This document shows positions 9,072 to 29,574 of a DNA stretch of 64,000 nucleotides, piece after piece. The notes below the pieces were generated by a model. That model saw only the letters and a program-made list of their open reading frames with translations, made no database searches and had not been told where the DNA came from. The stretch is from the IMG/VR virus record IMGVR_UViG_3300042309_002885, positions 1-64,000 of that record; one strand, written 5' to 3'. Source of the stretch: a virus. The translations under genes and the position numbers were made by a program. Position 1 is the stretch's first letter; each line of letters starts with the position of its first letter.

Positions 9072-9479
9072 ATGAGGTATTATACGTTCACATACTTTCC
9101 TAAAAGCATCTCTAACAATACTATATTCTCTCTGTCGCGTACTACTAATCGAATCTATCATTCTTATGGAGAAATAAAAAAGGATATGGATCAAGATCCT
9201 TACACTCACTACTATTCCTATTCTGATTGGTTTAATAATGAAGACTTAGAAAATCAAAGTATCAATTCTGTCCCTCTTATATCAGCTGAAACAGGTAAAG
9301 TTTATAATTATAAAATTGTTATAAGAGAAGATCACCCTGCATTTAACTTTGAAGAGTTTGTGTTTTATTTTAAGAGCTTGAAAGGTTCTACTTTTACTAC
9401 AGATAGAAAATTAGATTTAACTGCTAAATTAAAAGATAATGTTCTCAAAAGATTGCTTTTAGAAGTTGATGTTGTGTAG
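9072..9479 (+). CDS. MRY...PExHPLFN paralog family member 1
   Basis: MRYYTF...REDHPAFN; GACTAAATA at 9057. Confidence 0.8.
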   Translation: MRYYTFTYFPKSISNNTIFSLSRTTNRIYHSYGEIKKDMDQDPYTHYYSYSDWFNNEDLENQSINSVPLISAETGKVYNYKIVIREDHPAFNFEEFVFYFKSLKGSTFTTDRKLDLTAKLKDNVLKRLLLEVDVV

Positions 9480-9496
9480 TAGACTAAATATAAAGG

Positions 9497-9919
9497 ATGA
9501 GGTATTATACGTTCACATATCGTCCAAAAAGTATCTCTAATAGAACTATATTTTCTTTGTGGTATGATGAAAAGGTGTATCGTTCTTACGATGAAATAAA
9601 AGTAGATATGAATACAGATCTTGAAGAAGGACACTATAGTATCCCAGACCGTCTCTACTTTTCTGATTGGCTGAATAATGAAGACTTAGAAAATCAAAGT
9701 ATCAATTCTGCTGCTCTTAAATCATCAGAAAATAATAATATACTATCGTATAAAATTGTTATAAGAGAAGATCACCCTGCATTTAACTTTGAAGAGTTTG
9801 TGCTAAATTTTAAAAGCTTGAGAGATTCTAGTTTAACAGCAGATAGAGGATTAGAACTAGCTGGTGAGCTAAAAGATAATGTTCTCGAGCGATTGCTTTT
9901 AGAAGTTGATGTTGTGTAA
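9497..9919 (+). CDS. MRY...PExHPLFN paralog family member 2 (recent duplicate of member 1)
   Basis: MRYYTF...REDHPAFN; GACTAAATA at 9482. Confidence 0.8.
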   Translation: MRYYTFTYRPKSISNRTIFSLWYDEKVYRSYDEIKVDMNTDLEEGHYSIPDRLYFSDWLNNEDLENQSINSAALKSSENNNILSYKIVIREDHPAFNFEEFVLNFKSLRDSSLTADRGLELAGELKDNVLERLLLEVDVV

Positions 9920-9936
9920 TAGACTAAATATAGTAT

Positions 9937-10284
9937 ATGCGATATAGGGCAGTAGAAATAAAAAGATATCCTGACAGGTATGAGTATGGAGATATTACCG
10001 ATGATAATACTGCTTTAGATAGTATAGAGGAGTGGGATAACGATTATTGGCATTGGGAAAATTCTAAAGACCCTAATGTAAGATATTACGATGAAGAGCC
10101 TGGTGAATCATATGATGATGAGGATGAGGATGATAAATATGATATGAGAACTACGGCAATGATTCTAGAAACTAGTCCTATATTTAATTTGTTCCCTTTC
10201 GCTGAATGGCAATTACAATTTCCACCTGGATCAAAGACCTTTGAGTTAAGAGAGTTAATGCTTAAAAAAATAAAGGTAATATGA
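9937..10284 (+). CDS. MRY...PExHPLFN paralog family member 3 (divergent, acidic)
   Basis: MRYRAV...LETSPIFN; GACTAAATA at 9922. Confidence 0.7.
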   Translation: MRYRAVEIKRYPDRYEYGDITDDNTALDSIEEWDNDYWHWENSKDPNVRYYDEEPGESYDDEDEDDKYDMRTTAMILETSPIFNLFPFAEWQLQFPPGSKTFELRELMLKKIKVI

Positions 10285-10308
10285 TAGGAACTCTGTTATA
10301 ATCAGAGT

Positions 10309-10482
10309 ATGAACAAAACGAACCAAGGTTGGGAGGCACCACAAGCTAAGACAATTAAATCTGTTGATGTCTCTAGGGTTGTATACAAACTAGAGACAAA
10401 GAAAAATCCTTATCTTAGACCTCCTAGCTATCGCAAACAAAAGTCTGTCTCTCTTTTCGGAACTAACTCAGAATGTTACTAG
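10309..10482 (+). CDS. Small basic hypothetical protein
   Basis: Below track threshold; behind GGAAC motif 10287. Confidence 0.55.
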   Translation: MNKTNQGWEAPQAKTIKSVDVSRVVYKLETKKNPYLRPPSYRKQKSVSLFGTNSECY

Positions 10483-10483
10483 T

Positions 10484-10630
10484 ATGCCAACACTTCTTAC
10501 AAAATTATTTAATAACCGTAAAGCTAAAAAACCAATCTACGGGTGGTCTATATTTGCAATGGATGACAAGATTCAACTGACTAGGCGAGTAGCAGAAGAA
10601 CAAAGAAAGCAAGCATTACAGTTGCACTAA
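10484..10630 (+). CDS. Small hypothetical protein
   Basis: Below track threshold; MPTLLTKLFNNRK...QALQLH. Confidence 0.45.
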   Translation: MPTLLTKLFNNRKAKKPIYGWSIFAMDDKIQLTRRVAEEQRKQALQLH

Positions 10631-10654
10631 TACTAACACAAAATAATTATTTAA

Positions 10655-10951
10655 ATGGATACAACAATCACAATCTTCAAGGCCATCGCAGCTTTCTCGG
10701 TAATCTTCTCAGTGCTCTTCGTTGCGGTAAGGACATATGCTTGTTACATCCGTAAGTCAAAAAGATGCTCAGAGGGATGTGCATGCAAGGCTGTTAACGA
10801 TCAGATCACCGATAGCGTGACCGTTGAGAAGCCAAAGCGTAAGCAAGTGAAGAAGAGAGTAAAGGCTATCGAGGACGGTAAGCTAGTGTTCGAGAAGGTT
10901 AGTGAGCTTCCTGCTAAGAAGAAGCCAGGTCGTAAGAGGAAGGAACTCTGA
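10655..10951 (+). CDS. Membrane-anchored basic protein
   Basis: N-terminal TM, VNDQITDSVT segment, K/R-rich tail ending KEL inside the next promoter. Confidence 0.7.
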   Translation: MDTTITIFKAIAAFSVIFSVLFVAVRTYACYIRKSKRCSEGCACKAVNDQITDSVTVEKPKRKQVKKRVKAIEDGKLVFEKVSELPAKKKPGRKRKEL

Positions 10952-10963
10952 TATAATCATAGT

Positions 10964-11281
10964 ATGAATAGAATAGACTCTCTTAGAGAGATCATCGACC
11001 AACGCATGGCCGAGCTCATGCAAGAGATCGAGACTTTGCAAAAAGAAAATCAACGACTGCGTGAAGGCTTTCAAGGAGCGTGTTATGCATGCGAACCCGT
11101 AGCAGAACTCAATATAAAGCTCGTTGAAAGAGGACATGCACTCTATCGAGCACTTGCATACTTTACGGATAGTTTCTCTTCCTTTATGGATGAAGACGGC
11201 TTTTCACAGGAGAAGAAAGCAGTAGAAGATTGGAAGGAACTCTTTGATAATAATATACCCGAACAGAACTATGAAGATTAG
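10964..11281 (+). CDS. Small coiled-coil protein with CxxC
   Basis: Behind GGAAC motif 10942; ACYACEP. Confidence 0.65.
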   Translation: MNRIDSLREIIDQRMAELMQEIETLQKENQRLREGFQGACYACEPVAELNIKLVERGHALYRALAYFTDSFSSFMDEDGFSQEKKAVEDWKELFDNNIPEQNYED

Positions 11282-11660
11282 AATTGACAACATCGGAGCA
11301 AAGAGCCCTGTTTATATCGGTAAGCCTCCTGCTAATGCGCACCATATACTCGATATAGTACAATACTATCCGTGTAAGTATTATGGTAAGCTAGAAGAGT
11401 ATCTCAATGATGGCTGGGAAGATTGTGGTAATGGCGTCATAAGAAAGGATAACTATACTATAGGCAAATCTTGTTTTTCTAATGAAGAGGTATGCAATTC
11501 AATTGCTCAAATAGAATGGAATCCTAAAGAGGATTGTACTGAGCTCTCAACCATTGGCGAACGAGTGCTCAATCTCTCTAAGCGAGATCGCGATACTTTC
11601 TTTGAGGTTTATGAAATTGCAGCTAGGAAACTAGCTGAGACTTATAGTGATGAGGACTAA
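11271..11660 (+). CDS. Hypothetical protein
   Basis: MKIRIDN start overlapping the previous gene. Confidence 0.65.
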   Translation: MKIRIDNIGAKSPVYIGKPPANAHHILDIVQYYPCKYYGKLEEYLNDGWEDCGNGVIRKDNYTIGKSCFSNEEVCNSIAQIEWNPKEDCTELSTIGERVLNLSKRDRDTFFEVYEIAARKLAETYSDED

Positions 11661-11664
11661 AATT

Positions 11665-11925
11665 ATGGCAACGTATCGAATAATTAAAAGGAGGTTAGGA
11701 GTTGATAGCAAAGAGATCTATCATGTAGAGAGAAAGGTTCTCTGCTTCTGGTTTGACATACTTAATAACTCCTTTATATTTGGCATTGACGATGTTGCTA
11801 ATTATAAAAGTTGGTTTAATTCTAAAGAAGAAGCTTTGGCAATCATCGATAAGTTGATGCAGCCTAAGAAAAAGAGAAAAGAAGTTGTTTGGACAAACGA
11901 CCCTCAACCAAAAATGAACTATTAA
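11665..11925 (+). CDS. Hypothetical protein
   Basis: MATYRIIK...FNSKEEAL. Confidence 0.65.
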   Translation: MATYRIIKRRLGVDSKEIYHVERKVLCFWFDILNNSFIFGIDDVANYKSWFNSKEEALAIIDKLMQPKKKRKEVVWTNDPQPKMNY

Positions 11926-11928
11926 ATT

Positions 11929-12042
11929 ATGAGTACAGCTATAATCATTATGTGGATAGCAATAATAGTTTTAGCATCTCTGGCAACATTTGCAGTATGT
12001 TATATCATTTATAAAGCTAGTGATGAAGATTTTTGGTATTAA
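11929..12042 (+). CDS. Single-TM peptide
   Basis: Below track threshold; MSTAIIIMWIAIIVLASL...DEDFWY. Confidence 0.5.
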   Translation: MSTAIIIMWIAIIVLASLATFAVCYIIYKASDEDFWY

Positions 12043-12063
12043 GGAACTCTAATATAATAGGGT

Positions 12064-12252
12064 ATGACGAAAGTTAAAAACAACCGGGTTGTAAAGTATA
12101 TTGTGACTTGGACTTTTGAGTCAACCCGAAAAGAAGAAGAGTTTGAAGAACAAGATCTCGCTGAATCTTGGTACGAAACAAAACTAGAAACAGGTAAGAA
12201 TCCATCTCTGTATGTGACAGAACTTGTGGAAAGTACAAGGCAGCTGAAGTAA
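12064..12252 (+). CDS. Small hypothetical protein (paralog of 18092)
   Basis: Behind GGAAC motif 12043. Confidence 0.65.
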   Translation: MTKVKNNRVVKYIVTWTFESTRKEEEFEEQDLAESWYETKLETGKNPSLYVTELVESTRQLK

Positions 12253-12274
12253 GGAACTCTAATATAATAAACGT

Positions 12275-12754
12275 ATGGGACTTGACATGTATATATTTAA
12301 AGTTAAGAAGACTGCTCACTCCATTAAAGAGCTGAGCGATCTTAATCGCAATCCGCAACCTGGACAGCCAGAAGTTGCGGAGTTTGAACCATTGCAGCGC
12401 CCGTATGAAGATACGTGTCCTGATTATTACTCAATCTTCCAAGAGGTTGCATACTGGCGTAAGTTTAATGCACTGCATCAGTGGTTTGTTACAACTGTTC
12501 AGCTAGGTATTGATAAATGCGATCTTTATGAACTAGATAAAGATATTCTTTTTGAACTGTTAGAGATTCTTGAGGATGTTTACCATCTTAAGAATCCTAG
12601 TAAGCTGCCTCCCACACAAGGATTCTTTTGGGGATCAACTGAAGTAGACGACTACTATTGGGATAAAGTAGAGCGCAGTATTCAAACTATTTCTAAACTT
12701 ATCGACAACACTGATTGGAATAAAGAACGTCTCTTCTATCAATCATCTTGGTAA
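12275..12754 (+). CDS. Conserved phage hypothetical protein (MGLDMY type)
   Basis: MGLDMY...EVAYWRKFNALHQWF...GFFWGS...FYQSSW. Confidence 0.75.
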   Translation: MGLDMYIFKVKKTAHSIKELSDLNRNPQPGQPEVAEFEPLQRPYEDTCPDYYSIFQEVAYWRKFNALHQWFVTTVQLGIDKCDLYELDKDILFELLEILEDVYHLKNPSKLPPTQGFFWGSTEVDDYYWDKVERSIQTISKLIDNTDWNKERLFYQSSW

Positions 12755-12755
12755 T

Positions 12756-13055
12756 ATGAAACTAACACTAGAACAACTAACAAAGCTCCTTGAAGAATAT
12801 AAAGAGCTTAGCGATGCATGCGATGCAGCTAGAGCAGCTGGGTGTCTTGAAATTGAAGGGCGACTGCAAAATGCTATTTGGTCCTCAATAGAGACAGTCA
12901 TTAGCTTCTTTGATCCAGAAGGATGGATCATGTGGCACATTTTAGAGAATGAATATGGCGCTAAGGAGTATGAAGCTGGCTACGGTAGCAATATGAAGAA
13001 GATCAAAACTCCAGAAGATCTTCTCTGGCTTATGAATGTTCACACACAAGACTAA
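12756..13055 (+). CDS. Hypothetical protein
   Basis: In-operon ORF. Confidence 0.65.
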   Translation: MKLTLEQLTKLLEEYKELSDACDAARAAGCLEIEGRLQNAIWSSIETVISFFDPEGWIMWHILENEYGAKEYEAGYGSNMKKIKTPEDLLWLMNVHTQD

Positions 13056-13068
13056 ACAACACAAAAAT

Positions 13069-13314
13069 ATGGAAGTAAAATTTGATCGCGTAGAAGACGG
13101 TATGGTTCAATACAAATGTACCGATACAGATGGAAGGGTATATGGCGTAGCTGATACAATTCAGGAGGGAATGATTATGGAGACACTAGTCATTGATATG
13201 GATACATATGATGAGGTAGAAGATAGCGAGCTATTCAAACGCATTGTGACAGCGCGAGCGCTTTATCTTGCTGATAGCTATGAGGTTCTCGAAGCTATGA
13301 AGGAACTCTATTAA
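13069..13314 (+). CDS. Acidic hypothetical protein
   Basis: MEVKFD start; ends inside GGAAC motif 13302. Confidence 0.6.
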   Translation: MEVKFDRVEDGMVQYKCTDTDGRVYGVADTIQEGMIMETLVIDMDTYDEVEDSELFKRIVTARALYLADSYEVLEAMKELY

Positions 13315-13323
13315 AATAAAGCA

Positions 13324-13521
13324 ATGCTATATAACGTTATTGTTGTTATCTTACTAATCGTTCATACTGCTCTGTGTCTACTAGTTGGATTTTACAGCGG
13401 TGAAAAGCATACGCATCGCGAAGCATATGAGAATGGTCTTATGACTATCGAGCGTGTTGAAGACAAACGAAACTATCGCTGGATTGAGACACATAAACTT
13501 GGCTACGACTATGACGAATAA
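13324..13521 (+). CDS. Small membrane protein
   Basis: N-terminal TM; behind GGAAC motif 13302. Confidence 0.6.
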   Translation: MLYNVIVVILLIVHTALCLLVGFYSGEKHTHREAYENGLMTIERVEDKRNYRWIETHKLGYDYDE

Positions 13522-13522
13522 T

Positions 13523-13678
13523 ATGACACCATATGAGCGACGAGTAAGAGAATTGGAAGAGGAGGGCCTCACTACATCTGATGCACAATCAGTTGCTGAT
13601 GTGGAGTTTGAATTGCTTCCAGCATACGACGACTATCATAAAATTGTTGAACGAACTCTACCTCGTTGTGATTATTAG
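13523..13678 (+). CDS. Small acidic phage protein
   Basis: MTPYERRVRELEEEGLTTSDAQSVADVE. Confidence 0.6.
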   Translation: MTPYERRVRELEEEGLTTSDAQSVADVEFELLPAYDDYHKIVERTLPRCDY

Positions 13679-14073
13679 TAATCACTCTGATCTGGTTCTA
13701 GATATCTGAAGAGAGTAGGCACGTCTGTTATAATTTCAGAAGAATATTCTACAAGATCATGAGCTTGCTGTAGGTCCGCTGGTTGATTATAGAGCCAATT
13801 TTTAGCTGCTTTTTTATCTTCTGATACTATAGCACCTTTGAACTGGTTGTCTGCAAAGTTAACCAGAGCTGTATATTTATTATTTGTATATACAGTAAAC
13901 CCATTGCGATTAAACTGCCAGCTGTCTACTAACTTATAACCTCCGTTACTTAATTTTATATCAAGTTGATTGCCTATTCTATTTTGATTGAAGGTTTCAC
14001 TGTTTTTAGTTGGTTGTTGAACAGTTTCATAAGCTTCAGCTATTAAATTCTGATCTTTCTTAGGTAGTCTCAT
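13675..14073 (-). CDS. Late protein, candidate internal head protein
   Basis: Start MRLPKKDQNLIAEAYE at 14073, just after ATAAATA. Confidence 0.6.
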   Translation of the reverse strand: MRLPKKDQNLIAEAYETVQQPTKNSETFNQNRIGNQLDIKLSNGGYKLVDSWQFNRNGFTVYTNNKYTALVNFADNQFKGAIVSEDKKAAKNWLYNQPADLQQAHDLVEYSSEIITDVPTLFRYLEPDQSDY

Positions 14074-14126
14074 ATGTTTATTTATTCTCCAGCACATAAA
14101 AAGATGGAACTTTAATACAATAAGAT

Positions 14127-14549
14127 ATGTCAGCAATACTAGAAGAAGTCTTGGACGATATGCACGATATCGAATACAAGAAGCTCTGCAATCTCACAGA
14201 TGAGCTCATTGAGAGCGATAAGAAGCTTGTTGAGTTCTCTATCTTCAGAGATGTCAGCAGTAATATCGATAACTGGATTATCTCTGCACCAGATATTACC
14301 TCGACAAACCCAATCATTAACGGCGAGGTTGTGTTCTTTAGTGATTACTGGCGCCTGACCGACCATCTCAAACCACACAGTAGAGAGATTGTATCGCGCG
14401 TCTATACTAATCCAACCTGGAAAGATATTATCAACGCAGCAAACGAGATGGTTGAGAGTACTTGTCAGTGCTCGCTATTCCTTGAAGGTCTAGCACCGCG
14501 GGGTGTTGCTAACGGTATTAAGCGCATTGAGATTGAATTCGGTTCATAA
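14127..14549 (+). CDS. Hypothetical protein
   Basis: Behind GGAAC motif 14106. Confidence 0.7.
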   Translation: MSAILEEVLDDMHDIEYKKLCNLTDELIESDKKLVEFSIFRDVSSNIDNWIISAPDITSTNPIINGEVVFFSDYWRLTDHLKPHSREIVSRVYTNPTWKDIINAANEMVESTCQCSLFLEGLAPRGVANGIKRIEIEFGS

Positions 14550-14565
14550 TGACTAAATATATGTG

Positions 14566-15000
14566 GTGAGACGAAATAAAAAACATACTAAAATAAGATA
14601 TACCGGCTTATTTTTAGGTAACGATCACGAGGTTCAGAACATCTGGTCTCACGAGGAGCTAGATTATTATTCTAAAAACATCAACCCTCTAACTGAGGAA
14701 GATTTAGTAAGTGTTAGTGATGAAGGTCTTAGAGCATATAAGAATGTAAACAATTATAGTATAATGTATGTAAATGGTAAGAGAGAGCTTGGTCCTATTA
14801 TAACTATACCTGAACCGCATCCATTGTTTAATTGTCATTACATTTACAGCGAGGAAGAATTTGACTTTGGAAGAATGCAGGGCGTTACCAAAGATCACCC
14901 AATAAATGATGCTATTGAAGTAATTATGGATCAAGTTGGTCCGTTTTTTGATAGTATTGAATATGTAGATGTAACCAATAGATACACTGAAGAGCAATGA
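14566..15000 (+). CDS. MRY...PExHPLFN paralog family member 4
   Basis: GTG AGA start (MRRNKK)...IPEPHPLFN; GACTAAATA at 14551. Confidence 0.75.
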   Translation: MRRNKKHTKIRYTGLFLGNDHEVQNIWSHEELDYYSKNINPLTEEDLVSVSDEGLRAYKNVNNYSIMYVNGKRELGPIITIPEPHPLFNCHYIYSEEEFDFGRMQGVTKDHPINDAIEVIMDQVGPFFDSIEYVDVTNRYTEEQ

Positions 15001-15314
15001 GATACGCGCTAATAGATTTAAGAGGTACATCTATCGTTAATTGTTACAATCACAACGTTACAGTTGAGCATTTGACTAAGTGGGGAGGTAAAAAAATAAC
15101 GCTAGGCAACCGAACTGTAAGACCTATAAAACATGAGGACGGGGTAATAGAATATAAGTTCTCTGAAGCATCATACTCTTTCTTTTTGCCCGAAGCTCAT
15201 CCACTATATAACAGCGCAGTACTTTTTAACTCCTTTAATTTTCCTATAAACGGACAATCGCAACTAAAAGCTAAAAATGCTGTTGGCGATCATTTAAGAC
15301 AACTAAGACACTAG
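14997..15314 (+). CDS. MRY...PExHPLFN paralog family member 5
   Basis: MRYALI...LPEAHPLYN; ATGA overlap with the previous gene. Confidence 0.8.
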   Translation: MRYALIDLRGTSIVNCYNHNVTVEHLTKWGGKKITLGNRTVRPIKHEDGVIEYKFSEASYSFFLPEAHPLYNSAVLFNSFNFPINGQSQLKAKNAVGDHLRQLRH

Positions 15315-15362
15315 TTCTAGCGCTGAAGCTATATTATTTAAGTCGCAAGACTAAATATGTAA

Positions 15363-15635
15363 GTGAGATACAGGTTGCTTGATAAGTTTAATGAGTCTAT
15401 ATCCGCTAACAACGATATATACCCTGATGATTTTGTTGATGCTGCGGCAGAATTAAACGAATATAAAACATCTAGGGACTTGGTGAGGTTTATGAAGAGT
15501 GATACCATCACCTTTTATTTTGTACCAGAAACTCATCCGCTGTTTAATTATGGTTTAGACTTTGATATGAGTGATGAAGCACACGAACAACTTCAAAGGG
15601 TTATTGATAAACAACTAAAATTAATATCTAAATGA
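15363..15635 (+). CDS. MRY...PExHPLFN paralog family member 6
   Basis: MRYRLL...VPETHPLFN; GACTAAATA at 15349. Confidence 0.8.
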   Translation: MRYRLLDKFNESISANNDIYPDDFVDAAAELNEYKTSRDLVRFMKSDTITFYFVPETHPLFNYGLDFDMSDEAHEQLQRVIDKQLKLISK

Positions 15636-15952
15636 GATACACAAGTTTAGAAAAAATTAGTGGTACTACTGTAGCTAATAAGCAGCTGGTTACCTCGGAG
15701 TATTTCAAGAAAAAAGCCACAAAAGACAAGCACCCAACTCCAGCAGCTGATGGTATTATATACTATATGCCATATACTGATCTCGCTACTATTTACGTAC
15801 CTGAAACTCACCCTCTCTTCAATTATCCTATGCTGGTGTTTTCAGACGGGTATGCAAAGATTCACAGAGACAGAGTATATAAGGGTGGTACTACTCTAGG
15901 TAACGATATGATGGTTATGCTAAATAAATTTGGTGATAGTTTAACTGTATGA
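15632..15952 (+). CDS. MRY...PExHPLFN paralog family member 7
   Basis: MRYTSL...VPETHPLFN; ATGA overlap. Confidence 0.8.
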   Translation: MRYTSLEKISGTTVANKQLVTSEYFKKKATKDKHPTPAADGIIYYMPYTDLATIYVPETHPLFNYPMLVFSDGYAKIHRDRVYKGGTTLGNDMMVMLNKFGDSLTV

Positions 15953-16296
15953 GATATTCCGCTTTATATATAATTCCCGGTCGTGATGAGCGTAATGAGG
16001 ATAGATACGTTATTCACGATAGTGGAGGAATTTTACATAGAGCGGAAGATCTCACAAAAGGCTATGGCGCTGTAGTGAATAAGTTTATAGAGGATGATGA
16101 GGGGTTGAGGTTGTTTTATAGCACGAGGAATAACAGAAAATCAATCATCGTACCTGAACACCATCCATTGTTCAACTTAGGTCCATTAACACAGGATGGT
16201 TTTGAGGTCATTGGGGATTATATAAGGGATGATATAGATGAAATGCTGAGGATATATGTAGATAGGCTATTAGAGAAATTAAATAACATGGTATGA
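15949..16296 (+). CDS. MRY...PExHPLFN paralog family member 8
   Basis: MRYSAL...VPEHHPLFN; ATGA overlap. Confidence 0.8.
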   Translation: MRYSALYIIPGRDERNEDRYVIHDSGGILHRAEDLTKGYGAVVNKFIEDDEGLRLFYSTRNNRKSIIVPEHHPLFNLGPLTQDGFEVIGDYIRDDIDEMLRIYVDRLLEKLNNMV

Positions 16297-16649
16297 GGTA
16301 CTCTTATATACAAATAACTGGCACTTTGTATCAGCCATACTTCTATGTAAACGATGCGACTAATTCTGTTGTTGAATATATAAAAAGAGAATTTAAGAGT
16401 GTAGGTGTGGTAGAAGGTATTGAAATGTATCTTGAGAAAGAGTTTTCTAGAGCTGCTCTCGTTCCAGAGACACATCCGTTGTTTAATTGTAATGTAATAT
16501 ATAGTGTAAGCAAGTCATCTGATTTCTCGACAGAGGGTGTGGGCACGACAGAGCAATACAGCAATATGAATAGGATGATCGAGAGTGTGTATATATACAA
16601 GCTTGTAGATTTAGTAGAAACAGACCGCTCAAAGAATAAAAAGCCATGA
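16293..16649 (+). CDS. MRY...PExHPLFN paralog family member 9
   Basis: MRYSYI...VPETHPLFN; ATGA overlap. Confidence 0.8.
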   Translation: MRYSYIQITGTLYQPYFYVNDATNSVVEYIKREFKSVGVVEGIEMYLEKEFSRAALVPETHPLFNCNVIYSVSKSSDFSTEGVGTTEQYSNMNRMIESVYIYKLVDLVETDRSKNKKP

Positions 16650-16948
16650 GACAATCCGCAATACTAACATCATTTGCTATAAGCTCTGGCACTATAAGAG
16701 CTATGTCTAGTACAGAGTATAGAGAGAAAGATATACGGCTAGATATGAATAAAAGTAACTACAAGGGTAAGTTTGAGGATGGTACAGAGTTATATGCAGG
16801 TATAAATAGCTATTATTATATAGTACCTGAGTCAAGCCCTCTCTTTAATTTTTACTTAGTTCCTGAAAATTTGCAAAGTATAGAGAGAAAAAATTATCTT
16901 AATTTTCATAAGGACATTAGACAAATGGTAGTTGACATGACTACATAA
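16646..16948 (+). CDS. MRY...PExHPLFN paralog family member 10
   Basis: MRQSAI...VPESSPLFN; ATGA overlap. Confidence 0.75.
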   Translation: MRQSAILTSFAISSGTIRAMSSTEYREKDIRLDMNKSNYKGKFEDGTELYAGINSYYYIVPESSPLFNFYLVPENLQSIERKNYLNFHKDIRQMVVDMTT

Positions 16949-17935: not shown

Positions 17936-18079
17936 ATGAAAGAGATGTTCATAGTGATTGTCGGAGAGGGAGATGAGAAGTTCAGCGTGTATTACGATGA
18001 CTATGGTAATGCCGCAGAGTGTGCTCTAAGTTATAGAGAGCAGGGACAAAAGGTAAGGGTTGAGACAAAGGAACACTGA
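17936..18079 (+). CDS. Small hypothetical protein
   Basis: Below track threshold; behind motif 17915; ends KEH-stop inside motif 18070. Confidence 0.55.
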   Translation: MKEMFIVIVGEGDEKFSVYYDDYGNAAECALSYREQGQKVRVETKEH

Positions 18080-18091
18080 TACAATAAGAGT

Positions 18092-18277
18092 ATGAAACAG
18101 GACATCGACACTACATTTACTGTTACCTGGAAGTCGGTAACGAAAAGAGACCGGAAGACAGTTATGTTCAGCAAGCAGAGTGATGCAGAGGAATTCTACA
18201 AATTGAAGAAAGATAAAGACAGATTTCCTGCTCTCTACATTACTGAAAAGATCACCTCTACACGCCTACTGAAATAA
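18092..18277 (+). CDS. Small hypothetical protein (paralog of 12064)
   Basis: VTW...AEEFY...PALYITE...STRLLK. Confidence 0.65.
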   Translation: MKQDIDTTFTVTWKSVTKRDRKTVMFSKQSDAEEFYKLKKDKDRFPALYITEKITSTRLLK

Positions 18278-20108: not shown

Positions 20109-20456
20109 GTGAGATACTCAGGTGTAACAGTGTATGGAGAGCTAGGACCCCTTGGCGGTTTCTATATAGTCATCGATACTAAAGATGGTACAGAGCAAGC
20201 GCTTGAGTATGAGGACTACGATGAAGCTGATTTTTATAAGGAAACAGATGAAGGTGTAAGGATATACACTATGAGTAATCATCCAGATCAGTCATACAGC
20301 GTACCACCAAGAGTATTCTTCTTACCAGAGACACACCCACTGTTCAATCTATATAGAATAGAATTAAGTAACGATCTATTTGAGTTTCTTAAACCACCTC
20401 GCGGAAAAGTTATTGATGCTAGTGTAACAGAAGAGCTATTGGCTATGATTAAATAA
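20109..20456 (+). CDS. MRY...PExHPLFN paralog family member 11
   Basis: MRYSGV...LPETHPLFN; GACTAAATA at 20095. Confidence 0.8.
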   Translation: MRYSGVTVYGELGPLGGFYIVIDTKDGTEQALEYEDYDEADFYKETDEGVRIYTMSNHPDQSYSVPPRVFFLPETHPLFNLYRIELSNDLFEFLKPPRGKVIDASVTEELLAMIK

Positions 20457-20461
20457 GAGAG

Positions 20462-20764
20462 ATGAGACGAATCCTTATTGAGACATCTATTAACTTCAAG
20501 CATATAGCTCCTGTCGGTGCTCGTTCACCGCTTGACGATATGTCGCAACATACAGCAACATCGCTTGTTAAAAGATATGATAACGGCATAGAGTTATATA
20601 GAGCTCCTTTCGATCGCTTTTTAATTACTATACCTGAACCACATCCACTGTTCGGACTTTACGCGCTATCCTATAATCGCAATGACTATATAGGAGATAT
20701 CTTTTCTAAAGAGAAACAGGAAGCTATTAAAGGAGTGGTGCGAGATGTTTTAACAACTAAATAA
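20462..20764 (+). CDS. MRY...PExHPLFN paralog family member 12
   Basis: MRRILI...IPEPHPLFG. Confidence 0.75.
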   Translation: MRRILIETSINFKHIAPVGARSPLDDMSQHTATSLVKRYDNGIELYRAPFDRFLITIPEPHPLFGLYALSYNRNDYIGDIFSKEKQEAIKGVVRDVLTTK

Positions 20765-20769
20765 GAGAT

Positions 20770-21093
20770 ATGAGATACTCTGCTTACTTATTGAATATGT
20801 TTTATGACTCTGATTTAGAAGCTATCTATTCAGGTTTAGGTACTATTGAAAAATATAAGAAGCGTTGGTTTAAGGTTACATCAGAAAAGGATGGTATGAT
20901 ACTCATGACAGGAAGTGCTAAGCATGGCTATCGTAAAGCTGTTCTTGTACCAGAGACACACCCTATGTTTAATGGAGGAATGTTTGATGAAGGTAGTAGT
21001 TACCTTAAAGGCAACACTATTAAGGTTAAGATCAAAAATAAATTAAATGACTTAATGTCAAAAGAAGTAATAAATGCGTTCTTTAGCTCCTAA
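20770..21093 (+). CDS. MRY...PExHPLFN paralog family member 13
   Basis: MRYSAY...VPETHPMFN; AACTAAATA at 20755. Confidence 0.8.
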   Translation: MRYSAYLLNMFYDSDLEAIYSGLGTIEKYKKRWFKVTSEKDGMILMTGSAKHGYRKAVLVPETHPMFNGGMFDEGSSYLKGNTIKVKIKNKLNDLMSKEVINAFFSS

Positions 21094-21102
21094 ATAAGTG
21101 AG

Positions 21103-21438
21103 ATGAGATACTCTGCTATAACCATATACAATGCATCTACAATTGCAGTATTTGCAATAGGAGTAACTTTTAGATCCCTTGTTTCGAAGACAATGAATAA
21201 AGTAGGTAGTGCAAATGGTATAGATTTTTATAACAAGAAAGATCATAATCTGTTAGCGTTTATACCCGAAACTCACCCTCTGTACAATATAAGCGTCATA
21301 AAAGAAGCACATACTAAAAGTAATAAAGGCTATGTTACTAGTGATTTGATAGGTACTTACCAGCAATATAACAATATAATGTACATGGTAAAGGATATAT
21401 ATCTCAAGGATATTGATATGTTAATCAACAAGTATTGA
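21103..21438 (+). CDS. MRY...PExHPLFN paralog family member 14
   Basis: MRYSAI...IPETHPLYN; CTAAATA at 21090. Confidence 0.8.
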   Translation: MRYSAITIYNASTIAVFAIGVTFRSLVSKTMNKVGSANGIDFYNKKDHNLLAFIPETHPLYNISVIKEAHTKSNKGYVTSDLIGTYQQYNNIMYMVKDIYLKDIDMLINKY

Positions 21439-23194: not shown

Positions 23195-23206
23195 TATACT
23201 AACGGT

Positions 23207-23452: not shown

Positions 23453-23475
23453 GGGAACTCTTTTATACTAGCGAC

Positions 23476-23673
23476 ATGAAGAAACTATATTCGATTGTAT
23501 TTCACAATGATGAATGCTATACGGAAGCAATGGCATTAAGCGACATTCACACCTATAACGATGCCGATGCTGCAGAGATTGAGCTTTTCTGGAACAGCAA
23601 ACGTAAACGTGACAACGCGGTTCGTCTTCTTAAGCAGAATGACATTACTGTAGACACCTATGACTTCAATTAA
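23476..23673 (+). CDS. Small hypothetical protein (paralog of 24621)
   Basis: Behind motif 23454. Confidence 0.65.
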   Translation: MKKLYSIVFHNDECYTEAMALSDIHTYNDADAAEIELFWNSKRKRDNAVRLLKQNDITVDTYDFN

Positions 23674-23762
23674 AGGAACACTGATACAATAAGGCATCGC
23701 AAGAAGCGATAACAAACAACAAAACAAACAATCCACCAAAGGAACACCAATAGAATAAGACA

Positions 23763-24140: not shown

Positions 24141-24203
24141 GTGAAGGAGCTGAGCATCTCTCAAAACTGCTCGTCCCTTTTAGGAACTCAAATACAATAA
24201 GGT

Positions 24204-24359
24204 ATGCACAAAGTAACCGTTTACTCTAACTGGGAGAAGACCTCAGTGCATGAGTTTGAAACACTAGAGGAAGCTGAGCTGTTCGCTGAGAACATGAAGC
24301 ACAACCAATACTCTGTACTCATCGATGAGATCGATGAAGAGACTGATGAGGAACTCTGA
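24204..24359 (+). CDS. Small acidic hypothetical protein
   Basis: Below track threshold; behind motif 24183; ends EEL. Confidence 0.55.
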   Translation: MHKVTVYSNWEKTSVHEFETLEEAELFAENMKHNQYSVLIDEIDEETDEEL

Positions 24360-24373
24360 TACAATAAGACATC

Positions 24374-24598
24374 ATGAAACTACTGCCCATCACATTCATC
24401 GCCCTGACCGTTGTACTCACTGCCATCTCAGTCTTCTGGGCTGATTGGATCATCAGAGAGCTCTACGATAAAGACATCAACAACTGGTTGATCCTCGCTG
24501 GTGTGATCGTTACCTCGCTCTGCATCCCAAGAGCACTGAGCGGTATCCTTACACTCGCGATGGTTGTAGCTTCATTCTACATCCTATTCATCCGCTAA
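24374..24598 (+). CDS. Small multi-TM membrane protein
   Basis: Hydrophobic segments; behind motif 24350. Confidence 0.65.
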   Translation: MKLLPITFIALTVVLTAISVFWADWIIRELYDKDINNWLILAGVIVTSLCIPRALSGILTLAMVVASFYILFIR

Positions 24599-24620
24599 AG
24601 GAACACCAATACAATAAGGT

Positions 24621-24821
24621 ATGACCGAAATGGAATACTTCATCACCTTCAACAGCGAAGAAGACTTTATCAAAGCTAGTGAGATGACATCCATTCTTCT
24701 TCCAGACGACTTCAACAAAGGAGGTCTTGAAATGCTTTGGAATCAAGAATGGTATCGCAACCAAGCCGTTCACGAGCTAAGTAAGATCGGTATCGAGGTT
24801 GATACCTATGAGCTGGATTAA
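24621..24821 (+). CDS. Small hypothetical protein (paralog of 23476)
   Basis: Behind motif 24600. Confidence 0.65.
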   Translation: MTEMEYFITFNSEEDFIKASEMTSILLPDDFNKGGLEMLWNQEWYRNQAVHELSKIGIEVDTYELD

Positions 24822-24845
24822 GGAACACCAATACAATAAGACATC

Positions 24846-25037
24846 ATGCACGTCCAACCAACCAACAACAACTACCTCGCAGGCTATCTCGAACAATCCT
24901 TCAAGACCTTCCATCATGTACTCGAACGAGAGGCTATCATCAAGTGGAACAGTCCAGAGTATAAGAAGGTAATGGACTTGATCGCTAAAGAGCTTAAAAG
25001 AGCTCATGAAGCTGAACGAGAGTTTTCAAATCGGTAG
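24846..25037 (+). CDS. Small hypothetical protein
   Basis: Behind motif 24822. Confidence 0.6.
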   Translation: MHVQPTNNNYLAGYLEQSFKTFHHVLEREAIIKWNSPEYKKVMDLIAKELKRAHEAEREFSNR

Positions 25038-25038
25038 T

Positions 25039-25280
25039 GGTGTCATGAGAGAGATCCGGGCAATAGGAGAGCGTGGGGGCTCCCTAGAGAGCCCGGGTCT
25101 CTGAGACAACGCCGCGTCTAGAGACACCCAGCGCTCCTAAATGCCTCCTATGGAGAGAGGTTTAGAAACAAAAGAGTAGCCATGTCTCCAAAAATTTTTT
25201 GCTATATCCTCTGAGACTCCAATAAGCGCAGTTCCTCGGAAATTTTTTTTGCGCGGATTCTAAGACTTCTATATAGGGGT
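25039..25280. other. GC-rich structured non-coding region
   Basis: Long hairpin 25051-25101, enclosing GGTGTC/GACACC stem, two AAAnTTTTTT-GC tracts near 25190 and 25240. Confidence 0.55.
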
Positions 25281-25297
25281 CTGACTAAATAAGATGA

Positions 25298-25642
25298 GTG
25301 AGATATAAGAAATATAATGTAGATTTAGGAGACATTACTAAGTCTAATGTTCTTCCTGATCTTTCAAGCATTCATAATAATCTTTTAGAAGATAACGAGT
25401 ACCTTAGAAAAGAAACAATGCTTGATGGTATAGTCTTATACAGAGCTAGAAATCCGTTTAGTAAACTTATTAGTATGAACTTACCAGAAAATCATCCTGC
25501 GTTTAATTTTGATATTAGTGTATCGTCTTGCTTTAAGCGTTATTTTCAGCCATCTACAAGAGATATAGAGAGACACGGAGATATAAGAGATCTTTTATTT
25601 AGATACATAGTACATCCTTTATTCAATAGCCTTAAAAAATGA
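25298..25642 (+). CDS. MRY...PExHPLFN paralog family member 15
   Basis: MRYKKY...LPENHPAFN; GACTAAATA at 25283. Confidence 0.8.
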   Translation: MRYKKYNVDLGDITKSNVLPDLSSIHNNLLEDNEYLRKETMLDGIVLYRARNPFSKLISMNLPENHPAFNFDISVSSCFKRYFQPSTRDIERHGDIRDLLFRYIVHPLFNSLKK

Positions 25643-25675
25643 GGCATCCATATAAGGCGACTAAATATAGAGGTA

Positions 25676-26140
25676 GTGAGGTATAAACAAACACATATAG
25701 ACTTTAACAAAAAAACCATAGCACCTGCAATCTTAGTAAGACGTTCTATAAATGACAGGTCGGGAGTTATGGTAGTTGGTGAGGATGGTAGGGTTATTCT
25801 TCCTAGAGATACTAGTAATATGGTTAATACTAGGCCATACTGCTTAACTAGAATGCCACAAAGTACTGATAAGCCTATAGAAACAGAATATAGGTATTTA
25901 AACCATAAACACTATGCTACTAGTTTTAAGATAGAAGACGGTTTATACTTCGATTATCTAGAAGGAATGTTTGAAGAAGAAAATGATGGTTATCTTTATG
26001 CAGCTGAATATCATCCTCTCTTTAATGTAGATGTGTTGGAGGAGCTTCATAGCAGCGAAGGTTTAGAAGTATATCCTTCTGTACGTCGTCTGATAAATAA
26101 GATAGATAAGATCAAAAGTAGTATAGACAATGAGATATAA
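25676..26140 (+). CDS. MRY...PExHPLFN paralog family member 16
   Basis: MRYKQT...AAEYHPLFN; GACTAAATA at 25659. Confidence 0.8.
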   Translation: MRYKQTHIDFNKKTIAPAILVRRSINDRSGVMVVGEDGRVILPRDTSNMVNTRPYCLTRMPQSTDKPIETEYRYLNHKHYATSFKIEDGLYFDYLEGMFEEENDGYLYAAEYHPLFNVDVLEELHSSEGLEVYPSVRRLINKIDKIKSSIDNEI

Positions 26141-26603
26141 AGCTTATATAATTGGAGAAGATTTCGGTCCAGATTGGTTAGTATATTATGAGACTGAGAT
26201 TGCTGTTCCAAGCCGTGGTGGTGGTATATATACAGTAGATGGTAGCGGTCATGTAATAAATTATAGAGATGATGGTTTTAGGCCTTATCCTTATTGTCTG
26301 GATAATATGTTCAAGAGAAAGTATCCAGATAAAATAAGAGCTAGAAATGGTTATGGAATGAAGGTTGATTGTTATAGATTAGATGATGGTATATTTTTCG
26401 ATAATAATAATGAAGAGTTTAATGACTATACCGTCTATATACCAGAGACGCATCCTCTCTTTAATTTATCGTTCTTCGATCTTCCACACACAATTGATAA
26501 CTTAGTACCTGATTATACAACAGCTAAGATAGCCGGTGAGTTGTGGCATAGTGTATCTGATCCTATTACGAATAAGATAGGTGACGCAGTACAACCTTCT
26601 TAA
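26130..26603 (+). CDS. MRY...PExHPLFN paralog family member 17
   Basis: MRYKAY...IPETHPLFN. Confidence 0.8.
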   Translation: MRYKAYIIGEDFGPDWLVYYETEIAVPSRGGGIYTVDGSGHVINYRDDGFRPYPYCLDNMFKRKYPDKIRARNGYGMKVDCYRLDDGIFFDNNNEEFNDYTVYIPETHPLFNLSFFDLPHTIDNLVPDYTTAKIAGELWHSVSDPITNKIGDAVQPS

Positions 26604-26612
26604 TCTAAGACT

Positions 26613-27278
26613 ATGATTAACACTCTTGTAATATCTGATATTCACTTAGGATCATCGGTATGTGATAGAGATAAGGTTCTTCAGATATTATCAACTCCCT
26701 TTAAGACTCTAATTATAAACGGAGATCTCTTTGACAATCACTCATTTAAGAGATACAATAAGAAGGATTGGAAGATCTTATCTAAGATACGTAAGCTATC
26801 AAAGACACACAGTGTGATATTAGTTAAGGGTAATCACGATGGATGTGCTGATTTCTTAGCAGCTATCACTGGTATGGAGTTCGTATCAGAGTATTCTTTT
26901 ACTATCGATAATATGAAGTATCACTGCGAGCACGGTGACGCTTACGATCACTGGATCAAATATAAACCAATCTCCACATTTATCTTTACAGGCATCTATT
27001 ACTGGATACAGAAATTCGATAAGAGACATATTATTACACGGAGGTTAAAAGCATGGTCTAAGTCATGGGTAAAGGCTAAAGATCTAGTATCTCGAAGATT
27101 CCTAGACAAGAGAGGCGGTTCGTACGATGTGCTCATAGCTGGACACACCCACTACCCAGAGACTATTTATTCACGAGCGGCATGCTGCTATTATGTGAAT
27201 ACCGGATCGTTCTGCGATGAGCGGTGCTCTTATGTAGTAATAAGTGATGATGGCTCTTTTGATTTGAAATATATCTGA
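26613..27278 (+). CDS. Calcineurin-like metallophosphoesterase (LpxH/UDP-2,3-diacylglucosamine hydrolase-like)
   Basis: SDIHLG, NGDLFD, GNHD, EHGD, GHTH motifs. Confidence 0.85.
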   Translation: MINTLVISDIHLGSSVCDRDKVLQILSTPFKTLIINGDLFDNHSFKRYNKKDWKILSKIRKLSKTHSVILVKGNHDGCADFLAAITGMEFVSEYSFTIDNMKYHCEHGDAYDHWIKYKPISTFIFTGIYYWIQKFDKRHIITRRLKAWSKSWVKAKDLVSRRFLDKRGGSYDVLIAGHTHYPETIYSRAACCYYVNTGSFCDERCSYVVISDDGSFDLKYI

Positions 27279-27291
27279 CTAAATATAGAAA

Positions 27292-27666
27292 GTGAGATAT
27301 AAATTATATTCATATCATCAGTCTGCTCCTAGGAGCAGACTTTATCCGAATTCAGGTTCGGTTAAGAGTAAAGATGAAATAGACGGCTTTGGTATAGAGG
27401 ATGATATATTTGTAAACACAATAGTATATGAAGGTAAAGTTGTTCCTGATACGCTTCGTATTAGTATGCCCGAGAATCATCCTTTGTTTAATATAAATAT
27501 AGCTTATACAATACCTAAACATACAAGAGGTGAAGTTAATGTTCAATTTCAACAATTTCAAAAAGATGTGAGTCATATGATAACGCCGTTCACTAATATG
27601 CTAGACAAAGTAATAAAAGACAAACAACATCATATTAGAGCATTAGATATAACAAATGAGATATAA
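27292..27666 (+). CDS. MRY...PExHPLFN paralog family member 18
   Basis: MRYKLY...MPENHPLFN; GACTAAATA at 27277. Confidence 0.8.
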   Translation: MRYKLYSYHQSAPRSRLYPNSGSVKSKDEIDGFGIEDDIFVNTIVYEGKVVPDTLRISMPENHPLFNINIAYTIPKHTRGEVNVQFQQFQKDVSHMITPFTNMLDKVIKDKQHHIRALDITNEI

Positions 27667-28015
27667 ATTATATTCTGGTTTTTTAAGACATACGGATGCT
27701 GGGCCTAAACTCTTTGCGTATATTAATAATATTAAGAAAAAGCGCAATGTATCAGGTATACACGTTATAGATGGAGTATTTGCTATTAGTGATATGTCTC
27801 GAGGAGGGAGAATAGTGCCTACTGATCTTAAAGTTTATGTACCTGAAAGTCATCCCTTATTTAATTTTAATCTTACCTTTGAAGTATACCGCACAAGCAA
27901 AGTACCTGCTCCTGATTTTAGAAAATATGAGATAAAAATACGTCAAGTTGTAGATCCGCTTTTCAATAAACTTTTAGAAATAACAAAAAACGGTACCGAG
28001 CGTATAGGTCGTTAA
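27656..28015 (+). CDS. MRY...PExHPLFN paralog family member 19
   Basis: MRYKLY...VPESHPLFN. Confidence 0.8.
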   Translation: MRYKLYSGFLRHTDAGPKLFAYINNIKKKRNVSGIHVIDGVFAISDMSRGGRIVPTDLKVYVPESHPLFNFNLTFEVYRTSKVPAPDFRKYEIKIRQVVDPLFNKLLEITKNGTERIGR

Positions 28016-28030
28016 GACTAAATATAGAAA

Positions 28031-28393
28031 GTGAGATATTCGGTGTATGTATATTATCCAATGATGAGTAGCGGCAGGAGTCTTTATGTAAAGAATCCAA
28101 CTAATAATATGCGGAATGAAGAAAAAATAACAGGTATACGTACATCGGAGGGTATATATTTTAACTCATCGACATATGGTGGAAAGGTTCAAGCGGATTC
28201 CTACTATGTTTATATTCCTGAAAATCACCCGCTGTTTAATTACGATTTAGCCTTTCGAGCACAAACAGATACCAAGCCAAGATATACACCTGAATCACGG
28301 GCGTTTCAAAAAGTTATGGAGCGGTCAGTGGAGTCGCTTCTCGATGAGATAGATAAAGAGATAGAACAAAGGCGTAATAAGCCTAAAGCCTGA
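28031..28393 (+). CDS. MRY...PExHPLFN paralog family member 20
   Basis: MRYSVY...IPENHPLFN; GACTAAATA at 28016. Confidence 0.8.
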   Translation: MRYSVYVYYPMMSSGRSLYVKNPTNNMRNEEKITGIRTSEGIYFNSSTYGGKVQADSYYVYIPENHPLFNYDLAFRAQTDTKPRYTPESRAFQKVMERSVESLLDEIDKEIEQRRNKPKA

Positions 28394-28408
28394 GACTAAA
28401 TATAGAAA

Positions 28409-29176
28409 GTGAGAGATTATAATCTTAGAAAGATTTATGAAGGTACTACAGGTGATGAAAAGACCTATGTAGGTAATCTCACTATTGGTAAATATAAGCT
28501 TGTTAAGGATAAAGAGATTAAAGAATGTGATTACGAAAGTAATAAAAATAATAAGAAAATCATATCATCTGCTACAAAAAATAATATAGAGAAACTTAAA
28601 GAGGCTTTTAAATCTGATATAACAATTGATAAAATTTATAGAGCTGTAATTGCTACAACAAGATCAGTCTACTCAACATATATATCTGGTACTCTGAAAG
28701 GTGAGTCATTTATATGGGCTAGAATAGAAACGAATAGCGCTGGTGCTGGACAAACAAAACTATACTTTGAGGATGGATTTACAAATGCTGTTAAATTTAT
28801 AAGTTATGTATTTACACCTACAACATTAGAAAAGACATCTGAAGGTACATACCGGATACACAACCGGGTTGAAAGAATTATTACTTATTCTACTGAATAT
28901 GAGGAAGAGCAGATTGGTCCTAAACGCTTTGATATAGTTAATTATGGTCCATCAGGAGACTATCATAGGATATCTTTACCGGCTCGTTTATCTTATGCAC
29001 CTACCTCATATAATGCTCAATTTTACGAGAACGGCTGGATACGGTTTACAATATATAGCTATTTGGGAATGCATATGACTATTTCGTTTCCAGATCCTGA
29101 TTGGGGATATATAGCTAAGGACGATGGCTCAGATTATAGTTTTGATAAAATGTTTAGAGAGGATTTAAGTAAATGA
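28409..29176 (+). CDS. Late hypothetical protein, candidate internal head protein
   Basis: Same GACTAAATATAGAAAGTGAGA leader as members 18 and 20 but no HPLFN motif; N-terminus MRDYNLRKIYE. Confidence 0.7.
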   Translation: MRDYNLRKIYEGTTGDEKTYVGNLTIGKYKLVKDKEIKECDYESNKNNKKIISSATKNNIEKLKEAFKSDITIDKIYRAVIATTRSVYSTYISGTLKGESFIWARIETNSAGAGQTKLYFEDGFTNAVKFISYVFTPTTLEKTSEGTYRIHNRVERIITYSTEYEEEQIGPKRFDIVNYGPSGDYHRISLPARLSYAPTSYNAQFYENGWIRFTIYSYLGMHMTISFPDPDWGYIAKDDGSDYSFDKMFREDLSK

Positions 29177-29574
29177 GATACAAAATATACGGTCATGATA
29201 TATTTGCTTATGAGCCACCTTTTGTTAGATCTTTAGATATAACAGATGAGATGGATGAGTATGATATTATCAATTATATAAATAAGTTTTGGAAAGTACG
29301 TCATTACTACGATACAGCAAAAGGTGAGGGAAAAAAACCTAAGCTTATTGTTGGTGGTGATAAGGATGGCTGTTTAACTCTCTTCTTAAAAACTGATGCA
29401 TCTTTAAAAAGGTTAGGAATATTATTACCTGAGACGCACCCTCTCTTCAACCACTACACTCTATGGAGTGCAAGATTTAAATTTGACGTGTCAAGACGAC
29501 GTAATTTATTTACTGATTCTCCGATAAAATATTTTACTGATCAAATACAACAATTCATATATGATAACATTTAA
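29173..29574 (+). CDS. MRY...PExHPLFN paralog family member 21
   Basis: MRYKIY...LPETHPLFN; ATGA overlap. Confidence 0.8.
   Translation: MRYKIYGHDIFAYEPPFVRSLDITDEMDEYDIINYINKFWKVRHYYDTAKGEGKKPKLIVGGDKDGCLTLFLKTDASLKRLGILLPETHPLFNHYTLWSARFKFDVSRRRNLFTDSPIKYFTDQIQQFIYDNI

Follow-up and report, generated by a model that had tools for sequence, protein, structure and literature searches.

Why should a phage carry 21 diverged copies of one small gene, and what might their products do? The question arises from the IMG/VR virus record IMGVR_UViG_3300042309_002885, a record of 121,925 b with a CheckV completeness estimate of 58%, whose first 64 kb (64,000 nucleotides) form the stretch of DNA analysed here, hereafter referred to as the window. 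Its plus strand holds 21 open reading frames (ORFs) of 90-157 amino acids (aa), arranged in four clusters of 3 (9072-10284), 7 (14566-16948), 4 (20109-21438) and 7 (25298-29574) members, which share an N-terminal M-R-Y and, further on, the motif [IVL]-P-E-x-H-P-L-F-N, and which we refer to as the MRY family. Together they occupy 7,629 nt, corresponding to 37% of the span over which they lie and 6.3% of the record. From profile searches, promoter-like motifs and comparison with related contigs, it is well supported that these ORFs are 21 paralogues of a phage-lineage-specific, late-wired and fast-exchanging family that is new to databases.

Membership and distribution of the MRY family

A profile built from the 21 members matches exactly those 21 across the complete record. 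When hidden Markov models (HMMs) were built with one cluster left out at a time, every left-out member was recovered (E 1.5e-13 to 2e-3 at Z=1000), and the other ORFs of the window (n=215) gave zero matches at E<=10. In the 21-member alignment M1, R2, E and P are invariant, Y3, H, F and N are conserved in at least 90% of members, and mean column identity is 17%; the consensus around the motif reads h-h-[IVL]-P-E-[TS]-H-P-L-F-N-h-x-h-h (h, hydrophobic). Across a wider set of 120 aligned sequences the Glu is the sole invariant residue, with R, H and N near-invariant. A variable insert of 30-80 residues differs from copy to copy in charge, length and predicted secondary structure, and the members span isoelectric points (pI) of 4.3-10.0 and net charges of -15 to +10, with no conserved cysteines. 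The motif is encoded by synonymously different codons in different copies (repeat family D3), Arg2 is encoded by AGA, AGG, CGA, CGG and CGT, and Tyr3 is sometimes replaced by Phe; conservation therefore acts at the protein level. A role for MRY as a nucleic-acid signal was considered and ruled out, given the five Arg codons, the swaps of Tyr for Phe and the absence of the sequence from other late genes. An initial annotation of this DNA, made from the letters alone, had delimited the same 21 ORFs and four clusters, all of whose coordinates were borne out, and had read the motif as conserved at protein level, with which the D3 repeat and the Arg2 codons agree; cluster 4 does hold the seven members assigned to it, with two non-family genes (26613-27278 and 28409-29176) also lying inside.

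That annotation did not recognise the family, and neither did any library that we tried. Searches of Pfam, PHROGs and NCBIfam gave nothing consistent for single members or for all 120 aligned sequences, also at E<=10; a profile search of PDB gave no sequence match, no usable match was found in the ESM Atlas, the motif string was not found in a literature search, and tblastn and megablast searches of 50,697 phage records gave no match to the family in cultured phages. Fic (HPF), GIY-YIG, HNH and R-S-E ADP-ribosyltransferase motifs were not among the profile or fold results, no search having been aimed at them. An exhaustive profile search among 1.84 billion representatives found 102 clusters at E<=1e-3, nearly all of which begin with MRY and carry the motif, those sampled all being unnamed metagenome proteins; a word-based search of 5.8 billion proteins returned close orthologues only. 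Using a degenerate DNA pattern for PETHPLFN, we found seven further IMG/VR contigs with 4-18 tandem MRY members each. Three of these contain the capsid gene (83-84% identical), and four of the five that were scanned contain ribonucleotide reductase (76-78% identical). The same pattern detected no family member in the genomes of 185,579 prokaryote species (one genome each), its 27 matches there being chance occurrences in proteins such as glutathione peroxidase and amylase, and no MRY gene is present in Flavobacterium phage immuto, though it has a DpdA cassette in common. In the metagenome proteins P0042 and P0122 (246-247 aa), two adjacent MRY genes are naturally fused in frame, the second start now reading ...KGIRYSII, and no fused forms of >292 aa were found. 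As far as these data go, the family does not extend beyond a single clade of uncultured T4-like phages, where it always occurs in multiple copies.

Late-type promoters and cassette turnover

Judged by homology of its genes, the phage is a distant and uncultured T4-like myophage. Its major head protein, encoded at 47830-49299 on the minus strand, matches phrog_138 and is ~34% identical to cyanomyophage capsid proteins; the closest cultured capsid and portal proteins are those of cyanophage, at ~33% identity, and no close cultured phage was found at the DNA level among the 50,697 phage records searched with tblastn and megablast. Virion genes in the window further include those for the portal (52828-54633), a gp15-like sheath stabiliser (54644-55771) and a gp13/14-like adaptor (51667-52812), and a homologue of the gp55 late sigma factor lies outside the window at G000:C1:81617-81883 (38% identity over residues 41-130, E 5e-10).

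As a bare word, CTAAATA is not enriched in the window (27 found against 25 expected). Of the 21 members, 14 have a TAAATA that ends 3-10 nt upstream of the start codon, where 0.16 are expected (binomial P 2e-25), with CTAAATA in that position in 12, and the corresponding number for neighbouring ORFs is 2 of 40 (P 5e-7). The seven members without a TAAATA of their own all overlap the upstream cassette, by 4-11 nt. The longer form (G/A)ACTAAATA, which lies 5-8 nt before the start codon, precedes 12 members and also the portal, gp13/14-like and gp15-like genes. This arrangement had been recognised in the initial annotation, including the overlaps and the motif before gp20, gp13 and gp15, and only its count of 13 promoter-bearing members needs correction, to 12 for CTAAATA or 14 for TAAATA. 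The late promoter of T4, TATAAATA, occupies positions -13 to -6, and that of phage Aeh1 is CTAAATA, beginning at -12 (PMC1524935). What we find here is of the T4 late type: a -10-only element resembling TATAAATA precedes MRY and virion genes alike, and the phage encodes a gp55 homologue. Late expression of the MRY genes consequently appears well supported by promoter motif, position and gp55 homologue taken together, and we infer that they would be transcribed by the gp55 system.

Small genes interleaved with the clusters carry AAGGAAC-N5-6-TAYAAT ~7 nt before the ATG (repeat families D1, D4, D6, D9, D11 and D12). Over the window and its relatives, the GGAAC motif precedes none of 83 family genes versus 47 of 172 other ORFs (P 1e-9), and TAAATA precedes 37 of the 83 versus 23 of the 172 (P 1e-7). 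On these motifs, the region is split cleanly by two promoter-like classes. Both end 5-9 nt before the start, as GACTAAATA-N5-8-ATG/GTG or GGAAC-N5-6-TAYAAT-N6-8-ATG (examples are at 9059-9074, 12041-12066 and 18068-18094 within window positions 8500-30000, and at 52812-55784 on the minus strand), and GTG is the start codon in nine promoter-proximal family genes. Because the motifs end so near the start codon, and given the position of the T4 late promoter, this phage would mostly make transcripts with no leader or with one of 0-3 nt. A generic sigma70 scan gave nothing above shuffles, and a generic terminator scan found 19 candidates against a shuffled mean of 10.0, of which the sole strong hairpin (8555-8580) lies outside the clusters; no stem-loops were found between members. 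Near-identical repeats at 17705-17771/19419-19485 (96%) and 19476-19623/23042-23189 (81%) comprise the promoters and 5' ends of small GGAAC-class genes, and therefore these presumed early cassettes appear to duplicate too.

The initial annotation had proposed that cluster content be compared among related phages, and this comparison reveals cassettes gained, lost and replaced, with 4-18 copies per contig. One contig (G002), which is ~94% identical in DNA, has 88-98% identity to window positions 8.4-21 kb, yet its cassettes differ: one different member stands in place of the three cluster-1 genes, an unrelated member replaces that at 15949-16296, one extra copy is present, and the gene at 20462-20764 is missing. 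On the left of these replacements homology ends at ...GACTAAATATA or just after ATGAGATAY, and on the right it starts again at the promoter or ATGAGRTAC that follows. The pooled ratio of non-synonymous to synonymous substitution rates (dN/dS) is 0.46 for seven orthologous pairs versus 0.22 for 22 neighbouring ORFs, with non-synonymous to synonymous counts of 94:51 and 198:214, respectively (P 5e-4), and the changes are spread over insert and tail, their density in the conserved core being about half. For lineages whose capsid proteins are 83% identical, the closest pairs of members share only 27-46% identity, and the member tree is star-like, with clusters that are not monophyletic and no cross-lineage orthologues. 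Rapid turnover of MRY cassettes is well supported by these sequence comparisons.

Table 1 Positions in the window of the MRY genes and of the non-family genes associated with cluster 4
Feature	Coordinates	Strand	Length	Remarks
MRY cluster 1	9072..9479	+	135 aa	IREDHPAFN; AlphaFold2 model; GACTAAATA 13 nt before ATG
MRY cluster 1	9497..9919	+	140 aa	64% identical to 9072-9479, recent duplicate; repeats D5, D13, D18
MRY cluster 1	9937..10284	+	115 aa	ILETSPIFN; net charge -15
MRY cluster 2	14566..15000	+	144 aa	N-terminal extension MRRNKKHTKIRY; start ambiguous, GTG at 14566 or 14563
MRY cluster 2	14997..15314	+	105 aa	ATGA overlap with upstream gene
MRY cluster 2	15363..15635	+	90 aa	own GACTAAATA
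MRY cluster 2	15632..15952	+	106 aa	overlaps upstream gene
MRY cluster 2	15949..16296	+	115 aa	unrelated member in its place in close relative G002
MRY cluster 2	16293..16649	+	118 aa	
MRY cluster 2	16646..16948	+	100 aa	MRQ...; VPESSPLFN
MRY cluster 3	20109..20456	+	115 aa	
MRY cluster 3	20462..20764	+	100 aa	IPEPHPLFG; missing in close relative G002
MRY cluster 3	20770..21093	+	107 aa	
MRY cluster 3	21103..21438	+	111 aa	
MRY cluster 4	25298..25642	+	114 aa	uses promoter that precedes phosphoesterase gene in related phages
MRY cluster 4	25676..26140	+	154 aa	long insert; AAEYHPLFN
MRY cluster 4	26130..26603	+	157 aa	long insert
Calcineurin-like metallophosphoesterase (non-member)	26613..27278	+	221 aa	YfcE-type; Pfam PF00149, E 1.4e-13
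MRY cluster 4	27292..27666	+	124 aa	
MRY cluster 4	27656..28015	+	119 aa	pI 10; modelled
MRY cluster 4	28031..28393	+	120 aa	
p255 (non-member)	28409..29176	+	255 aa	same GACTAAATATAGAAAGTGAGA junction (repeat D8); N-terminus MRDYNLRKIYE; no HMM match
MRY cluster 4	29173..29574	+	133 aa	ATGA overlap with 255-aa gene
p162 (non-member)	29561..30049	+	162 aa	ends array in all relatives; N-terminus MITFKQYTLLKE, like a T4 capsid-targeting sequence

Predicted structure and possible roles

AlphaFold2 was run on two members, that at 27656-28015 with the 120-sequence alignment. The model of the latter (predicted local distance difference test, pLDDT, 78.9; predicted template modelling score, pTM, 0.74) has strands at residues 2-10, 18-28, 35-38, 41-45 and 58-63, a loop formed by HPLFN, and helices at 71-80 and 85-111, and the model of 9072-9479, the most divergent cluster-1 member (pLDDT 75.9, pTM 0.72), has a mostly helical insert. 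Common to both is a core in which the N-terminal strand is joined by a hairpin, at whose end the motif lies, and by two helices at the C-terminus. As modelled, MRY proteins are small alpha/beta proteins with a shared core and a hypervariable insert. The initial annotation had likewise described one family with a conserved core and a variable part, and had named the lack of a common fold as grounds for giving this up; the two models share their core and differ in the secondary structure of their inserts, so the description stands. Searches with both models gave no fold match, either with Foldseek against PDB and BFVD (best E 0.2-1.4) or with VIA-align against 48,161 chains (best Z 3.5-3.7).

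The surroundings of cluster 4 bear on the question of whether MRY proteins enter the phage head. In every relative, the phosphoesterase (26613-27278) and the 162-aa gene (29561-30049) are conserved anchors that bracket a variable MRY array, the phosphoesterase being 65-72% identical in three contigs (G001, G003 and G004), where it lies beside MRY arrays. The late promoter belongs to the phosphoesterase in the relatives, and in the window three inserted MRY genes come after this promoter. The N-termini of p162, p255 and their relatives (MITFKQYTLLKE, MISFKQYTLLNE, MISFKEYFLRE, MRDYNLRKIYE and MDYKLKLLYE) resemble the T4 capsid-targeting sequence (CTS), and such leaders are kept in relatives (L011:18079, L015:12816, L016:2749 and L016:4005); p162 and p255 are probably head-packaged proteins. 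Where T4 gp23 is cut during maturation (LTE|A), the capsid protein reads ...CMTE|ANNTG (48940-49299, minus strand), with M-T-E|A in that place, and the ORF for a gp21-like protease (50493-51206, minus strand) opens with MALKLNLLVE. Together these suggest that the h-x-E maturation rule is kept in this phage. No T4-type capsid-targeting leader, of ~10 residues ending in hydrophobic-x-Glu, is found in the MRY proteins, and their residues 2-10 form the predicted core beta-strand where such a leader would be. By gene order and N-terminal sequence, then, MRY genes share putative late operons with probable head-targeted proteins and are themselves without such a leader. Elsewhere in the window, a 1047-aa protein at 5099-8242 has three glycosyltransferase-type domains (GT25, exostosin GT47 and nucleotide-diphospho-sugar transferase).

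The reading that we prefer, tentatively and with confidence a little short of even, is that MRY proteins form a diversified host-interaction set that is made with the virion and is either carried into the next cell or acts late against host defences. Each cassette, consisting of a late-type motif, or an overlap with the upstream cassette, followed by a variable gene, would be transcribed late in a gp55-dependent manner. The conserved core would serve all copies as scaffold or docking surface, leaving the variable insert to bind different targets from one copy to the next, with the proteins either entering the next cell or acting late against defences that sense late phage products. Among near-identical phages, cassettes are gained, lost and replaced, with break points at the promoter/ATGAGATAY junction. 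The expanded arsenal envisaged by the initial annotation gains support from this gain, loss and replacement of cassettes, from a dN/dS about twice that of neighbouring genes and from the pI range of 4.3-10. A more specific version, in which MRY proteins are inhibitors of a new fold class, made late and delivered with the virion or active late, we regard as doubtful; one conserved scaffold would here offer ~20 binding surfaces per genome against different host defence or sensing proteins, and new specificities would pass between related phages by promoter-delimited cassette exchange.

Several observations weigh against a diversified host-interaction set. TATAAATA-like and TAAATA-like words also precede some nucleotide-metabolism genes, and therefore the motif alone is no proof of late-only timing. 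The dN/dS of family members is raised but remains <1, and their changes are not concentrated in the insert, a pattern to be expected from relaxed constraint no less than from an arms race. An h-x-E within residues 4-16 is present in only 4 of the 21 members (a pattern count, set against no chance expectation) and in 27 of the wider set of 120, with no position conserved. Finally, the invariant E, together with R, H and N, which are nearly so, could belong to an active site instead of a scaffold.

The last of these points would lead to small enzymes such as nucleases or hydrolases, with R2, Y3, E, H and N as the active site and the insert setting the substrate. Although invariant and near-invariant residues are typical of catalysis and a phosphoesterase gene is a fixed neighbour, no enzyme family or fold was matched, members go down to 90 aa, and the motif is degenerate, including H to S, in several members conserved across phages (ILETSPIFN, VPESSPLFN), so that we consider this highly improbable. 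A strict version of packaging, in which the MRY proteins are internal proteins in the T4 sense that enter the prohead, are trimmed by a gp21-type protease and are injected with the DNA, is less remote and still unlikely. Here [IVL]-P-E would be a candidate cleavage site between a variable N-terminal cargo and a C-terminal helical targeting piece. The late-promoter wiring is consistent with such packaging, as are the co-operonic and translationally coupled arrangement with p255 and p162 and their CTS-like leaders, the capsid M-T-E|A (L-T-E|A in T4 gp23) with the gp21-like protease gene, the Glu that is invariant in 120 sequences with a hydrophobic residue at P3, and the precedent of T-even internal proteins, which are a diverse defence set sharing the CTS only (PMC3012670). 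However, the N-terminal h-x-E leader is absent, the H, P, F and N that follow the Glu are as conserved as the site itself, for which a cleavage site has no need, and P-E, in which Pro would occupy P2, closes a predicted core strand.

Late expression alongside virion genes, and a conserved core with a variable exposed insert, would also suit external decoration proteins or accessory adhesins like Hoc or Soc, with the core docking on one capsid or tail site, the inserts binding different surfaces and the virions being mixed. Yet 21 competitors for a single site would be unusual, the extreme pI range fits intracellular targets at least equally, and no Hoc/Soc-type or other decoration protein was among the Foldseek PDB/BFVD or VIA-align results (a missing match being weak evidence); in our view such a role is distinctly improbable. 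We attach as little probability as to the enzymes to the idea that MRY genes are largely dispensable selfish cassettes, whose promoter and ATGAGATAY repeat drive duplication and exchange and whose copy number reflects recombination and not benefit. Break points that lie exactly at the repeated junctions, one recent duplicate pair and one natural tandem fusion, a dN/dS that is raised yet <1, and the similar shuffling of T4-type hyperplastic regions by PeSL (promoter early stem-loop) cassettes (PMC2839356) would all agree with this, but many intact copies are kept in every related phage, all 21 ORFs of the window are open, the scored orthologue pairs have dN/dS <=1 (pooled 0.46), and the core motif is kept over ~100 sequence clusters.

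About 6% of a 122-kb record thus belongs to one family that no database recognises, and as related phages keep 4-18 copies while swapping cassettes, the family appears to matter to those phages. If MRY proteins are indeed a diversified host-interaction set of target-specific binders or inhibitors, they would amount to a compact natural library in which a single scaffold displays many surfaces, and could aid the discovery of new host defence systems or receptors.

Relation to known phage systems

T-even phages encode the internal proteins IPI, IPII and IPIII and possess a polymorphic ip locus. Like MRY genes, the genes of these proteins are small and non-essential-looking, have late promoters, lie in a variable region and differ strongly between relatives, and the position of cluster 4 beside genes with CTS-like leaders presents a further likeness. 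However, the T4 internal proteins have only a ~10-residue N-terminal leader in common, which is cut after h-x-E, and their folds are otherwise unrelated, whereas MRY proteins, as modelled, share a whole folded core and lack the leader. The likeness drawn in the initial annotation is in our view a functional analogy only, and not membership. The giant phages phiKZ and SPN3US, which are large myophages, also have paralogous, multi-copy late proteins of the head, inner body or ejection apparatus that are associated with the inside of the virion. These are much larger than MRY proteins, and no likeness to them in sequence or fold was found, no search having been aimed at it. Given that T-even internal proteins are diverse defence proteins (PMC3012670), the MRY family would, if its members are inhibitors, constitute a homologous and expandable counterpart of that arsenal, and the phage described here would be the first T4-like phage to expand one fold into an accessory late arsenal, whereas the arsenal of T-even phages is assembled from unrelated proteins with a leader in common.

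In the organisation of its cassettes the family resembles the PeSLs of T4-type hyperplastic regions (Arbiol et al. 2010, PMC2839356; PMC4122927), in which small genes are bracketed by a repeated regulatory motif, and the indel and replacement break points between the window and G002 likewise fall at the repeated motif. PeSLs consist of sigma70-like early promoters and terminator stem-loops, neither of which is found with MRY genes, whose repeat comprises a late-type promoter and the first nine coding bases (ATGAGATAY), with no stem-loop, and whose cargo is one paralogous family. With break points placed exactly at promoter and start codon, the MRY clusters provide a clean example of the shuffling of late-gene cassettes.

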